From positions 372,001 through 436,000 of the forward strand of contig JBDOQK010000006.1 in assembly GCA_040437565.1 (NCBI GenBank): 64,000 nucleotides of DNA. The letters are read 5' to 3'. The notes beneath the pieces were generated by a model. It saw only the letters and a list, made by a program, of their open reading frames with translations. It was not told the origin of the DNA and did no database searches. A program made the translations under genes and the position numbers. This stretch comes from Albugo candida (taxonomy: Eukaryota). Position 1 is the first letter of the stretch; every line of letters begins with the position of its first letter. Shown in pieces: positions 18,910-22,786 of this stretch.

Positions 18910-20050
18910 TTAGATAAGGTCGCACGAAGGTGAGTGTGCACCAATGAGCTGGACAGATTTACTCGATTTGTCCCAATAAGGTTCGATATTCATGAAGTAC
19001 GATAAATGAAGAAGAGTCTATCCACCCTCAAGTACGTTTGCGCGTGCACTCAGATATACCATACACATCTGCTACAAGAGAATAGAAACGTTGCGTAACA
19101 GAAGGAGATATTTTCAACTTTTCAAATGCTGGGTTTATGAGTCTCATAAAGCAGAGAAAAGACTCGACTGAAGAAGGGCAGGATGTCGTATAATGATTAA
19201 CACCTTGTACCGCCACGCATGAGATCGTCCTCATTTCTTAGTTCACTGAAGTGATGTTCGTCAGTAGGAAGGAACATCGCACAAGGTTGATGTAGTATAC
19301 GATGAAGGAGCAGTCCTGCTATTTACATGGTGTTTGTGATAGAGTCACAAATCTCCATTGAGCACTGCGTGATAGGCAATGGCGGCATTTCTGATTATGT
19401 ATTGAGGATTGGGATACGTCCGAAGTAATCATAATCTTACTTGCGTAAATCTTCGTATATACATGACTCGGTGCGTGGTATCGTGCAATACCTGAGAAAG
19501 CAGCACATCATCTGTGGACAATGGATGCATGCATGTCGTCGTCGTCACCATTATTTCGGGCTTCTTCTTGCTACGATAGTTTGAGTACACGTAGCTGACG
19601 GATGAGAATGGGAAGACTTGACTTTCTTTATCTACTCGCATCACATAATACGTAGAGGATGATGTACATGCTATTTGTTCTTTTTAGCGAAGGTGTCTAC
19701 TTTATGCGCTTCCAATGTGGCAGGTGACTTAGGTGAGCAGGAATAACTTACAATGATTATCTCGTCGACCATCTTCCACGCATAGCGATGTTTCTTGATA
19801 CACTGAGGAAAATTTCTAGAGTGATAGCGAATGTAATCATGCCTGCAACAATTTAGATAGAGCGCATTCATTAAGCGTACTTANNNNNNNNNNNNNNNNN
19901 NNNNNNNNNNNNNNNNNNNNNNNNNNNNNNNNNNNNNNNNNNNNNNNNNNNNNNNNNNNNNNNNNNNNNNNNNNNNNNNNNNNTAGCGAATGTAATCATG
20001 CCTGCAACAATTTAGATAGAGCGCATTCATTAAGCGTACTTATAATATCA

Positions 20051-21103
20051 ATGGTGGTACATCGTCGTGGTATAAATGGTCCAAGGGAATCCCACAAAAG
20101 GTCAGGAGAGAAATCCAATGGAGCTAAGAAGAAGGAAAGGCTGCAACCCATTCAGTCAGGGCGCTTTGCTGCAGATATGCGTGTACATGTTGGAGGTTAC
20201 GGACGTGGTGAGCATACTATTGCTTTGGACCAAGAAGAGCACAAACAATTTTTCGATAAAGACCACATGGAAGAAGGATCGAAGGAGCCAAAGGAACAAG
20301 CTAAGCGAACAGGGAAGAGTCGTGCTTCAATAAAACGGCGTAAGGAAAAAGAAAGAAGGCGATCAACTACACAATCGGCTAAGGGAGACGATCAAGCTGG
20401 TGAGACCTCAAAGGCTTCTAAACAAGTAAAATCGAAGCAGGATGCCGCTCCAAGTTTGGTTACGGTCAGTCAATGCGAACTTTGCAAAGTAGAAGAGGGC
20501 ACCTCTCGAAAAGAAAAAAATGATGCAACAAAAAAACGAAAGATTCAGAGTAAAGATAGGATACGCGGAAAGAAAGCTGCTCTGGATATATCATCAAAAT
20601 CAGATCATAGCAGTGATATTATCAAAGATGCGAATTCAACAAAAAAAAGAAATTTACTGTCCCAGCAATATGCCCAAGTTTTGGGTGAGACGATTGTGAC
20701 TGAAAGCGGTTTAGAGATACGAGATATAAAAATTGGTCAAGGTGCTCTTGTTACGGAAGGCGAAATGGTAACAGTGAAGTATCGCGGACGCCTCGACGAT
20801 CTAAAAGGGCTGATATTTGGTAAGGGAATGCTTACATTGCAGTACGGTACGAATTCGATCATTCCAGGTTGGGAAGAAGCTCTAGGAACAATGCTTCCTG
20901 GGGGCATTCGCTTTGTCACCATTCCGTCCAATTTGGCTTATGGAGTAACAGGAAAAGGGAAAAAAATACCTCCTAATGCCACCCTCTTCTTCGAGATTGA
21001 GCTGGTTCGAATCGGCAAACGATCACGTGGAACTGTTGGCGATGAAGAGACTCCGCTGCCGAAAGCGTTTCGACGTAAAAAGCGAAAGGAGAGGGCCCGA
21101 TAG
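20051..21103 (+). CDS. FKBP-type PPIase domain protein with a long Lys/Arg-rich N-terminal region
   Basis: TESGLEIRDIKIGQG..VTVKYRGRL..IIPGWEEAL..IPSNLAYG..IPPNATLFFEIELV, with basic NLS-like tracts. Confidence 0.9.
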   Translation: MVVHRRGINGPRESHKRSGEKSNGAKKKERLQPIQSGRFAADMRVHVGGYGRGEHTIALDQEEHKQFFDKDHMEEGSKEPKEQAKRTGKSRASIKRRKEKERRRSTTQSAKGDDQAGETSKASKQVKSKQDAAPSLVTVSQCELCKVEEGTSRKEKNDATKKRKIQSKDRIRGKKAALDISSKSDHSSDIIKDANSTKKRNLLSQQYAQVLGETIVTESGLEIRDIKIGQGALVTEGEMVTVKYRGRLDDLKGLIFGKGMLTLQYGTNSIIPGWEEALGTMLPGGIRFVTIPSNLAYGVTGKGKKIPPNATLFFEIELVRIGKRSRGTVGDEETPLPKAFRRKKRKERAR

Positions 21104-21400: not shown

Positions 21401-22786
21401 ATGGCGTGGTTCTGGGCTAGTAGCTTGAGTGAATCAAATACTGTTGTGGTGGAAATACCGGACAAGCACGTGCTAACAGTGACGAATGCCACTCGAGCCG
21501 TAATGGATCCTTCAGACGGTGCTCTCAGTGTTGGGTTGGAAACCCAGCAGCTGGACGGAAGTTTATGGAAAGGTTTTGTTTGCCATTTTGACGACGGAGT
21601 ACACCAGCATAAACTTGACTTGGTATTTACAAAGAAAGTGAAGTTCTATATTGCTAATGGATGTGGCCGGATCAATTTGACGGGCTACTTTCAAGCTGCA
21701 CCCCCAGCAACACTGACCGATGTTAAGAAAACCACGACATTGGAACCCGCAGAAGTACCGCATAAGGAGTCCAACAACAAAAAACAGCAACCAAAAAAAT
21801 CCGTGAATGCGGCATCACCTGCGAAGGTACCTGCAAAAATTTCGAGTGATGTGCTAGAGTCCGTGAAGAAAAATGCACAGCCTCCGAAAGCAAGTGTGCA
21901 AACCCCAAAAGCAAATGTACAACCTCCGAAATCAAATGTACAAACCGCGAAAGCAAGTGTGCAAACTCCGAAAGTAAATGTACAATCTTCAAAGGCAAAT
22001 GTACAACCTTCGAAGAAGAGCGTACAAGCCCCGAAAGAAAATGGGCAGCTTCCAAAAGCAAGTGGACAGCAATCGAAAGTCTCGCAATCTATCAAGACGC
22101 CAGAAAAATCAGCATCAACACCTAAAACACCCGCGAAAGCCACGGGCACACCTGTGGTCGCACCAGAAGAAGCGCCTAAAGCGATGTCAAAGGCTGCCAG
22201 AAAGCGGGCTCGTAAAGAGGAAGCAGCAAAAGCAGCGTTAGCAACGAAAGAAGTGACATGGGATCAGGTAAGCGATCAGTGTAGTAATTCCCACTTGTAA
22301 ATTATCTCCAGCTTTTTAGCACGCTTCTATGCGTGTCTTTATGGCCGCATATTAGCGTATGCTAACTTTTCGTAAGCTGGAGATCCAGACCATTTGGAAA
22401 AGTAGCAGTCAAGGTCGAGTACAAGAGTTTTTCTTGTATTTGACCTGAAAGCTGCGCATAGTCCTTAAGGCTGTCTCCGTTTATGGCCTATTTGCCTATC
22501 CATCGGAATCATACGAGTCATAACTATGGCACATCCCCTGCAATTCTCTTCAAGTATGAAGTACTCATAATTGTTCGGTTTATTGTAGGATACTGCTCCC
22601 GAAGATGGAGCCACGAAAAGCGCAAATGCCGGAAAGTCTGCAAAACTGGATTCATCTTCAAGCCCATTGACCACACCAAAAAAGCAAACTCAAGAAGCCG
22701 CACAATCAGATTCTGCGAACAAACAAAGCAAGAAGAAAAGAAAGAAGCGCCGTGGAAACGCCGATGCGCCAAACACCATCGAATGA
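21401..22786 (+). CDS. Nucleoplasmin-like (NPL) domain protein with a basic repeat tail; two exons (21401-22267, 22589-22786)
   Basis: N-terminal FW...LDLVF..KVKF..GCGRINLTGY fits the NPL fold of FKBP39/FKBP53/HD-tuin proteins. Phase-0 intron GTAAGC...TTGTAG at 22268-22588. Confidence 0.75.
21866..22075 (+). repeat. Coding 21-nt tandem repeat, about 10 copies of a KxxVQxP heptad
   Basis: KKNAQPP KASVQTP KANVQPP KSNVQTA KASVQTP KVNVQSS KANVQPS KKSVQAP KENGQLP KASGQQS. Confidence 0.9.
22304..22536 (+). ncRNA. Intronic box H/ACA snoRNA with three hairpins, predicted guide for LSU rRNA helix 69 pseudouridylation
   Basis: Hairpin 22304-22384, H box AGACCA 22387-22392, hairpin 22405-22455, 3' hairpin 22457-22528, ACA 22531-22533. 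Pocket strands CCUUAAGG and GAGUCAUA are complementary to the conserved LSU sequence UAUGACUCUCUUAAGG. Confidence 0.8.

Follow-up and report, generated by a model that had tools for sequence, protein, structure and literature searches.

A probable box H/ACA small nucleolar RNA in an intron of an Albugo candida gene for a nucleoplasmin-like domain protein, with predicted guide pockets for both ribosomal subunits

The subject of this analysis is an intron in a stretch of Albugo candida DNA of 64,000 nucleotides (nt), here called the window (GenBank assembly GCA_040437565.1, contig JBDOQK010000006.1, positions 372,001 to 436,000 of the forward strand). The host gene, located on the plus strand, has two exons and codes for a protein with a nucleoplasmin-like (NPL) domain. 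Its intron begins with GTAAGC and ends with TTGTAG, and the reading frames of exons 1 and 2 connect in phase across it. The intron probably encodes a small nucleolar RNA (snoRNA) of the box H/ACA class, about 250 nt long, which would guide the formation of pseudouridines (Psi) in ribosomal RNA (rRNA) of the small (SSU) and large (LSU) subunit. Features of the locus are listed below in window coordinates, with lengths of stems in base pairs (bp) and with the evidence in brackets.

21401..22267, plus strand: host exon 1, with the NPL domain followed by Lys/Pro/Gln-rich repeats (Pfam PF17800, E = 1.2e-6; open reading frame).
22268..22588, plus strand: host intron, 321 nt, GT..AG, phase 0 (sequence; spliced contigs of runs X9 and X19).
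22288..22536, plus strand: predicted mature H/ACA snoRNA, ~250 nt (5' end placed by the base of the 5' hairpin, 3' end by the 3-nt rule for ACA).
22291..22297, plus strand: 5' hairpin, 5' strand of the lower stem, CCA-cu-UG, pairing with 22391-22397; weak, with 3 + 2 bp on the two sides of a 2x2 loop (constrained fold).
22298..22303, plus strand: predicted 5' pocket, 5' strand UAAAUU, of which AAUU pairs with SSU rRNA (fold, target scan).
22304..22384, plus strand: upper (distal) stem-loop of the 5' hairpin, comprising the 11-bp stem AUCUCCAGCUU/AAGCUGGAGAU and the part above it (folds).
22385..22390, plus strand: predicted 5' pocket, 3' strand CCAGAC, a conserved antisense element complementary to SSU GUCUGG (invariant in 8/8 aligned sequences and also present in L045, a relative described below).
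22391..22397, plus strand: 5' hairpin, 3' strand of the lower stem, CA-uu-UGG (constrained fold, covariation).
22399..22404, plus strand: H box AAAGUA, revised (14 nt after C22385; ANANNA position kept in 7/9 family members).
22402..22455, plus strand: internal hairpin, with a near-perfect stem 22412-22426 / 22432-22446 and the apical loop GUUUU at 22427-22431; its outer 5 bp overlap the H box.
22457..22462, plus strand: 3' hairpin, 5' strand of the lower stem, CAUAGU (sequence, fold, covariation).
22463..22470, plus strand: predicted 3' pocket, 5' strand CCUUAAGG, with the invariant C22471 directly after it (sequence, target scan).
22472..22511, plus strand: upper stem-loop of the 3' hairpin, with a weak base of UG/CA, a 2x2 loop and UCCG/CGGA (folds).
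22515..22522, plus strand: predicted 3' pocket, 3' strand GAGUCAUA, with the invariant C22514 directly before it (sequence, target scan).
22523..22528, plus strand: 3' hairpin, 3' strand of the lower stem, ACUAUG (sequence, fold).
22531..22533, plus strand: ACA box, at a distance of 16 nt from G22515 and 14 nt from G22517.
22589..22786, plus strand: host exon 2, with a Lys-rich tail and the stop codon (open reading frame; splice joint).

The intron is real and spliced as read, because contigs of two of the four runs compared over 22100-22750 (X9 and X19) skip exactly these 321 nt with GT..AG ends, and because the intron is present in X15, a DNA run of organism E. The RNA label of run X9 is only a guess, and its RNA nature is shown by the spliced joint. 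In addition to the spliced messenger RNA contig (depth 597.5), X9 holds a separate contig of 299 nt that corresponds to the intron from 22268 to 22566 at a depth of 208.3; its first base is the first base of the intron, and it includes no exon sequence. Intron-derived RNA is thus abundant in this run. The other end of the contig lies one base short of A22567, found in the context CUCAU and 21 nt from the 3' splice site, and the whole looks like the pattern of an excised intron or lariat that begins at the 5' splice site and ends at the branch point. With regard to a stable RNA, the contig is only a hint and no proof of a trimmed snoRNA of 250 nt, because contigs show neither RNA ends nor local depth. 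Run X14 lacks a contig over 22254-22381, and X19 lacks one within the intron; neither gap was taken as evidence.

Comparison with organism E shows 2 differences in the 321 nt of the intron, whereas the flanking exons have 10 over 330 nt (Fisher p = 0.037). Both intron differences fall on unpaired positions of the 5' hairpin, one in the apical loop (22341) and the other in a bulge (22366). The intron folds with -105.6 kcal/mol (z = -7.76), and none of 100 shuffled sequences folds as well. An earlier note, made from the letters of the window, had proposed an intronic H/ACA RNA with three hairpins. The 321-nt intron that it placed at 22268-22588 is borne out by the sequence and by the splice contigs of X9 and X19, the three hairpins are present where it put them, in an intron with the fold score just given, and its 3' hairpin with the CAUAGU/ACUAUG base, the pocket strands 22463-22470 and 22515-22522, and the ACA were all recovered at these positions. 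The class of the RNA and the presence of three hairpins stand as proposed, while the note had given wrong assignments for the H box and for what hairpin 1 does, as discussed further on.

According to the layout proposed here, the RNA would consist of a 5' hairpin with its pocket, the H box AAAGUA, an internal hairpin with the GUUUU loop, and a 3' hairpin with its pocket, ending in ACA. The hairpin-hinge-hairpin-tail architecture is found in the window and in eight related sequences, in constrained folds and by covariation, with the internal hairpin inserted in the hinge. AAAGUA agrees with the ANANNA consensus and lies in the hinge just after the 5' hairpin. Spacing of 14-16 nt between target uridine and box is observed in both halves: in the 3' hairpin the two candidate positions lie 14 and 16 nt before ACA, and in the 5' hairpin C22385 lies 14 nt before AAAGUA. 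In both pockets an internal loop pairs with rRNA on the two sides of an unpaired U-N, with 8 + 6 or 6 + 8 bp in the 3' pocket and 6 + 4 bp with SSU rRNA in the 5' pocket. Released from the spliced-out intron, such a snoRNA would act together with dyskerin, Nop10, Nhp2 and Gar1 in guiding the formation of rRNA pseudouridines.

Targets were searched in real rRNA genes, fetched from genome contigs by scanning for the helix-69 motif of LSU rRNA. Three of the loci, L018, L019 and L028, are complete eukaryotic ribosomal DNA (rDNA) units in prokaryotic assemblies according to Rfam, and the 16-nt helix-69 motif lies within their LSU at 2312 of 3494, 2592 of 3965 and 2501 of 3790, respectively. With the geometry of an H/ACA pocket fixed, and with SSU, 5.8S and LSU scanned, the best target of the strand pair CCUUAAGG / GAGUCAUA is U2600 of L019 (6 + 8 bp without G.U pairs), and the second is U2598 in the same LSU (8 + 6 bp with one G.U pair). 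The next-best target anywhere has 10 bp. Among 3000 random pairs of 8-mers put through the same geometry, none reaches the score of 14 bp without G.U, and one reaches 13.5. It is this fixed geometry that makes the 3' pocket significant, and complementarity by itself would not. A bipartite target scan without constraints was of no use, since shuffled RNAs reach 15-19 bp in it, and it was replaced by the geometry-fixed scans. The pairing in two registers with the helix-69 motif, 14 and 16 nt from ACA, had been predicted in the earlier note and was reproduced with 14 bp in each register. The two 8-nt strands would pair with UAUGACUC-UC-UUAAGG of helix 69. In one register the equivalent of yeast Psi2264 and human Psi3747 would be positioned 14 nt from ACA, and in the other the equivalent of Psi2266 and Psi3749 would be positioned 16 nt from it.

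The motif scan gave some further observations. The same 20-nt helix-69 motif as in eukaryotes occurs in contigs with archaeal titles (L003, L005, L006, L007, L009, L010, L014, L025, L026 and L027, titled as Thermoplasmata, Nanoarchaeota, Heimdallarchaeota, Crenarchaeota, Methanobrevibacter and others). Complete or near-complete eukaryotic rDNA lies on contigs of bacterial metagenome-assembled genomes in L011, L012, L018, L019 and L028, which is probably bin contamination; in L018, 5S follows LSU on the same strand. No locus with the helix-69 motif was found in viral contigs.

Relatives of the RNA were sought in metagenomes by a pattern comprising the two 3' pocket strands 30-60 nt apart, followed by 8 nt and ACA. 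The pattern matches 28 loci. A contiguous lower stem of 7-8 bp is formed in five of them (L035, L038, L051, L054 and L055), and 7 of 8 pairs of the lower stem are formed in another three (L045, L052 and L053). These eight loci represent real H/ACA hairpins, because chance would produce a stem of 7 bp in about one case per thousand. The other 20 loci, six of which are one identical sequence, form 0-3 stem pairs and were treated as chance matches. A stricter pattern that allowed only transitions in the lower stem found no metagenome locus. The eight relatives fall into an AT-rich group (L035, L051, L054 and L055) and a GC-rich group (L038, L045, L052 and L053), and in constrained folds all of them adopt the same layout as the window sequence.

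The resulting family, which has no name, is recognized by the CCAGAC strand, an H box 13-15 nt later, an internal hairpin with the loop GUU(U/A)U, and the arrangement CCUUAAGG-C ... C-GAGUCAUA located 8 nt before ACA; the 3' pocket part of this description was imposed by the search pattern, and the remaining traits were not. Counted from the first C of CCAGAC, ANANNA is found after 13-15 nt in 7 of the 9 sequences, and the two exceptions miss only its final A. The closing stem of the 5' hairpin covaries, with the forms CCAGAG/CUCUGG, CCAGAG/CUUUGG, CCAUGG/CCAUGG and CCCCGGG/CCCGGGG. The loop of the internal hairpin reads GUUUU in six and GUUAU in three of the nine sequences, on closing stems as varied as ACAAGA/UCUUGU, CAAGC/GCUUG, CCGGC/GCUGG, GUGAU/GUUAC, GGGGC/GCCCU and GACGG/CCGUC. 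This hairpin, called extra in the earlier note, is not a peculiarity of the organism, but a conserved part of a family that occurs in at least two other, very different eukaryotic lineages. In the lower stem of the 3' hairpin (helix 4), both sides are changed in 6 of 7 pairs.

Covariation was counted on 29 pairs of six helices in an alignment of eight sequences, from which L045 was excluded for an insertion of ~130 nt. Paired cells make up 86.8% versus 69.0% in shuffles, pairs changed on both sides number 18 versus 9.5, and the covariation score is 0.470 versus 0.188. None of 500 shuffles reaches any of these measures, and when partners are slid by 1-3 columns, 35-42% remain paired. In the alignment of the internal hairpin, MAFFT misplaced three GC-rich rows, and pairs were read from the folds instead. 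In the excluded sequence, on the minus strand of L045 (5527-5751), the ~130 nt form an extra hairpin that separates the H box from the hairpin with the GUUAU loop. Large insertions are tolerated in the hinge.

Open reading frames neighbouring the relatives code for eukaryotic domains, namely coronin-type WD40 and Nse4_C in L052, and Gpi1 in L055. Motifs similar to GTAAGT occur upstream in the AT-rich loci. A tblastn search with the host protein of the window found nothing below E = 1 in the eight loci, and because no homologue locus encodes this protein, the element resides in different host genes. In the GC-rich relatives L052 (1761-2399) and L053 (541-1178), the snoRNA lies just upstream of an exon for the Nse4 C-terminal domain; the assignment in L053 is presumed from a reading frame near-identical to that of L052. 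Taking these results together, the window probably holds a genuine intronic H/ACA snoRNA of a known class, in an unannotated family conserved in distant eukaryotes.

We lean towards a 3' pocket that guides both helix-69 uridines, in the manner of human SNORA53. In that RNA, the 5' pocket makes 28S Psi3747 and Psi3749, located 14 and 16 nt from the H box (Jady et al. 2022, PMC8763049), with the 28S sequence quoted as 3749-UCUUAAGG-3756 (PMC8763049). Dual guidance needs alternative pairings of comparable stability (PMC8763049). It is plausible here because the nearest-neighbour energies of the two registers, -12.0 and -12.9 kcal/mol, differ by only 0.9 kcal/mol. Symmetric and perfect 8 + 8 pairing, spacing as in SNORA53 and the weak base of the upper stem also speak for the use of both registers. 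Furthermore, C22471 and C22514, which flank the pocket, are invariant in 9/9 sequences, though they lie outside the search pattern. In either state one of them could pair with the G released from the rRNA duplex, C22471 with G22515 or C22514 with G22470, and would in this way extend the upper stem.

The alternative that survives best, less probable than dual guidance but with a substantial share of its own, is that the same H/ACA snoRNA makes one helix-69 pseudouridine, its extra two bases merely strengthening the binding, and that another guide serves the second site. Yeast indeed has separate guides for the two sites (PMC5699541, PMC8307265), and the 16-nt spacing is less common than the usual 14-15 nt (PMC8763049). 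Moreover, perfecting the upstream antisense stem of SNORA53 locked the guide on Psi3747 and abolished Psi3749 (PMC8763049), and it is this stem that is perfect in the window RNA. Against a single register stands the perfection of both strands, with neither register favoured by the energies given above, and the retention, in very divergent relatives, of the complete set of 16 pocket bases together with both C residues beside the pocket, the 16 bases being ascertained by the search pattern. A more far-reaching form of the dual reading, which we regard as tentative, would see in these RNAs an ancient unannotated H/ACA family of eukaryotes far apart from one another, one that couples an SSU guide to a register-switching helix-69 guide, in which the invariant C residues pair by turns with the released pocket G, one pocket makes both pseudouridines and the GUUUU hairpin binds an additional factor or RNA.

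The SSU guide would reside in the 5' hairpin, which, as judged from the sequences compared, has a conserved pocket of its own. Six sequences were used in the target scan of this pocket, the remaining three sharing pocket strings with L038. In fixed geometry, all six find their top rRNA match at one and the same place in the SSU, (U)GUCUGG-UU-AAU(U), through 10-11 Watson-Crick pairs. The sequence of this site is present in five fetched rDNA loci, with a variant in L028. In the window RNA, the strands AAUU and CCAGAC would pair with GUCUGG-UU-AAUU. In SSU helix 34, the distance from the C of a CCG motif to the target U is 30 nt, and this U may be the equivalent of human 18S Psi1367.

Placing the pocket in this way changes the anatomy of the 5' half. 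The earlier note had built hairpin 1 on the 11-bp stem and had taken AGACCA (22387-22392) as the H box; an arrangement of this kind, with a pocket-less 5' hairpin closed by that stem and a middle hairpin peculiar to the lineage, now appears very unlikely. It is true that AGACCA fits ANANNA and lies 2 nt past the 11-bp stem, and that the minimum-energy fold contains this stem. In constrained folds, however, this stem forms the upper part of the 5' hairpin, and AGACCA sits inside the conserved antisense strand. Across the family, the corresponding place reads AGACAC, which is not ANANNA, in 7/9 sequences, leaving ANANNA at that offset in only 2/9, while at 13-15 nt after the first C of CCAGAC it is kept in 7/9. 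Any loop in hairpin 1 would have its top 21 nt from AGACCA in place of the 14-16 nt needed, and no rRNA target rises above shuffles: hairpin 1 was tried as a guide read from AGACCA and rejected, its best score of 12.5 being equal to the shuffle median. Finally, the middle hairpin is found in all nine sequences. A local mini-hairpin CCAGACA-N-UGG was considered as well and discarded, since the partner with which its 3' half covaries is the distant 5' strand.

That the intron holds no functional small RNA, being merely structured or carrying a microRNA-like precursor in its middle hairpin, with the rRNA complementarity a coincidence, is the least probable explanation and hardly credible: it can draw on weak Rfam matches to microRNA hairpin families (E = 0.3 to 7.5, far under gathering scores) and on the frequency of 14-bp rRNA matches in the unconstrained bipartite scan, but under fixed geometry a match as good occurs less than once in 3000, the entire layout is found again, covariation included, in unrelated host genes of other eukaryotes, and the intron is more conserved than its exons.

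Several points weigh against the interpretation as an H/ACA guide RNA with two pockets. Among the H/ACA families of Rfam there is none with a match in the window or in six homologue loci. The intron contig of X9 exceeds the predicted length of the snoRNA and could represent the excised intron or lariat, not a trimmed snoRNA. The structure on which covariation was counted was derived from the same, few sequences, and conservation of the 8 + 8 pocket is ascertained and not independent, having been required by the search pattern. The helix-69 pairing was computed on rRNA of eukaryotes other than the host. In the 5' half of the RNA, AAAGUA overlaps the three outermost bp predicted for the internal hairpin, the lower stem of the 5' hairpin has two mismatches in the window, and the antisense strand of the window reads CCAGACC in place of CCAGACA in the relatives. 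The pairing of 10-11 bp proposed for the 5' pocket is no rarer than chance, with random pockets often scoring 10-11; because pairing of this length is common by chance, what speaks for this pocket is that its antisense strands are conserved and its spacing is correct. The 5' pocket of the window itself may be weakened, given its weak lower stem and the loss of one pairing base.

In comparison with known guide RNAs, Rfam gave no match in the window at gathering threshold, no relevant family in 22100-22750 up to E = 10, and no snoRNA family in the six homologue loci up to E = 1. The covariance models of SNORA53, snR3, snR84, SNORA15 and U17/snR30 likewise had no significant match in the window. 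Besides the microRNA hairpins mentioned above, the sub-threshold matches include snR82 (13 bits, E = 1.9) and pieces of long non-coding RNAs, and all of them were rejected as chance.

SNORA53 is the closest known system. It addresses the same two helix-69 uridines from one pocket with the spacing of 14/16 nt, and it is also intronic, in sense orientation, with a weak and irregular upper stem (PMC8763049). The two RNAs differ in that SNORA53 has its dual pocket in the 5' hairpin, with distances counted from the H box, while the window RNA has it in the 3' hairpin, with distances counted from ACA; in that SNORA53 has an upstream antisense element that leaves one rRNA U bulged, while both strands are perfect in the window; and in that the other hairpin of SNORA53 is without a known target, while the other hairpin of the window RNA has the conserved SSU pocket (PMC8763049). 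The window RNA would work like SNORA53 but is no member of the SNORA53 family, because Rfam gives no match and the dual pocket is in the other hairpin. In yeast, 25S Psi2264 is made by snR3 and Psi2266 by snR84 (PMC5699541, PMC8307265); the helix-69 sites are equivalent, but they are served by two RNAs with one site each. What the earlier note stated on SNORA53, snR3 and snR84 agrees with these sources (PMC8763049, PMC5699541, PMC8307265).

For the other pocket, the RNA to compare is human SNORA15 (ACA15), whose site may be equivalent to the predicted SSU target of the window RNA; there is no Rfam match between the two. SNORA15 is listed for 18S-1367 in PMC6466398. Some other H/ACA RNAs, snR30/U17 among them, possess internal hairpins, and in snR30/U17 this third hairpin likewise separates the H box from the 3' hairpin (PMC7601244). 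snR30/U17 differs in being a processing snoRNA whose 3' loop binds ES6 of 18S rRNA, while the pockets in the window look like those of ordinary modification guides. The three-hairpin layout is unusual for a eukaryotic H/ACA RNA, with precedent. Use of one pocket, by alternative pairings, for two nearby uridines is known, with other targets, from SNORA57, SCARNA8, SCARNA1, yeast snR82 and archaeal sR-h45 (PMC8763049). Experimental proof of dual-register guidance came only in 2022, in human cells (PMC8763049).

In practice, the result is mainly a gain in annotation, comprising a snoRNA gene, its predicted targets and a corrected box assignment. Helix 69 links the two subunits of the ribosome as a bridge and is in contact with tRNA, and the pseudouridines that it carries belong to the best-conserved modifications of rRNA (PMC8307265). 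The open-access literature searched (subscription papers and supplements were outside its scope) describes no H/ACA snoRNAs of oomycetes or stramenopiles, and the present RNA adds an H/ACA guide to that lineage. If the 3' pocket is indeed dual, and is so in distant eukaryotes, it would be a cleaner, symmetric version of the arrangement known from SNORA53, the trick would be old, and the RNA would offer a simple system for testing the register switch and a clean natural model for dual-register guidance.

The host gene had been described in the earlier note as a likely gene for a nucleolar protein. The NPL domain fits a nuclear or nucleolar protein, although a domain does not show where the protein is located. 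A word-index search with the NPL domain found the host protein itself as its sole match. Immediately upstream of the host gene (21401-22786), on the same strand, there is a gene with an FKBP_C domain (20060-21100), which in the protein atlas matched nothing but generic FKBP clusters. In fungi and plants, nucleolar FKBPs combine NPL and FKBP domains in a single protein, and the two genes in the window may be a split pair or a mis-joined pair. A gap of 100 N (19884-19983), upstream of the scanned stretch, lies inside the open frame that holds the FKBP gene (19820-21103). The window contains 14 runs of exactly 100 N, the first at 2382-2481, which represent scaffold gaps of a draft assembly. In exon 1 of the host gene, at about 21880-22030, the translation reveals tandem repeats of ~9 residues composed of Lys, Val, Gln and Pro, similar to KA.VQ.PK.

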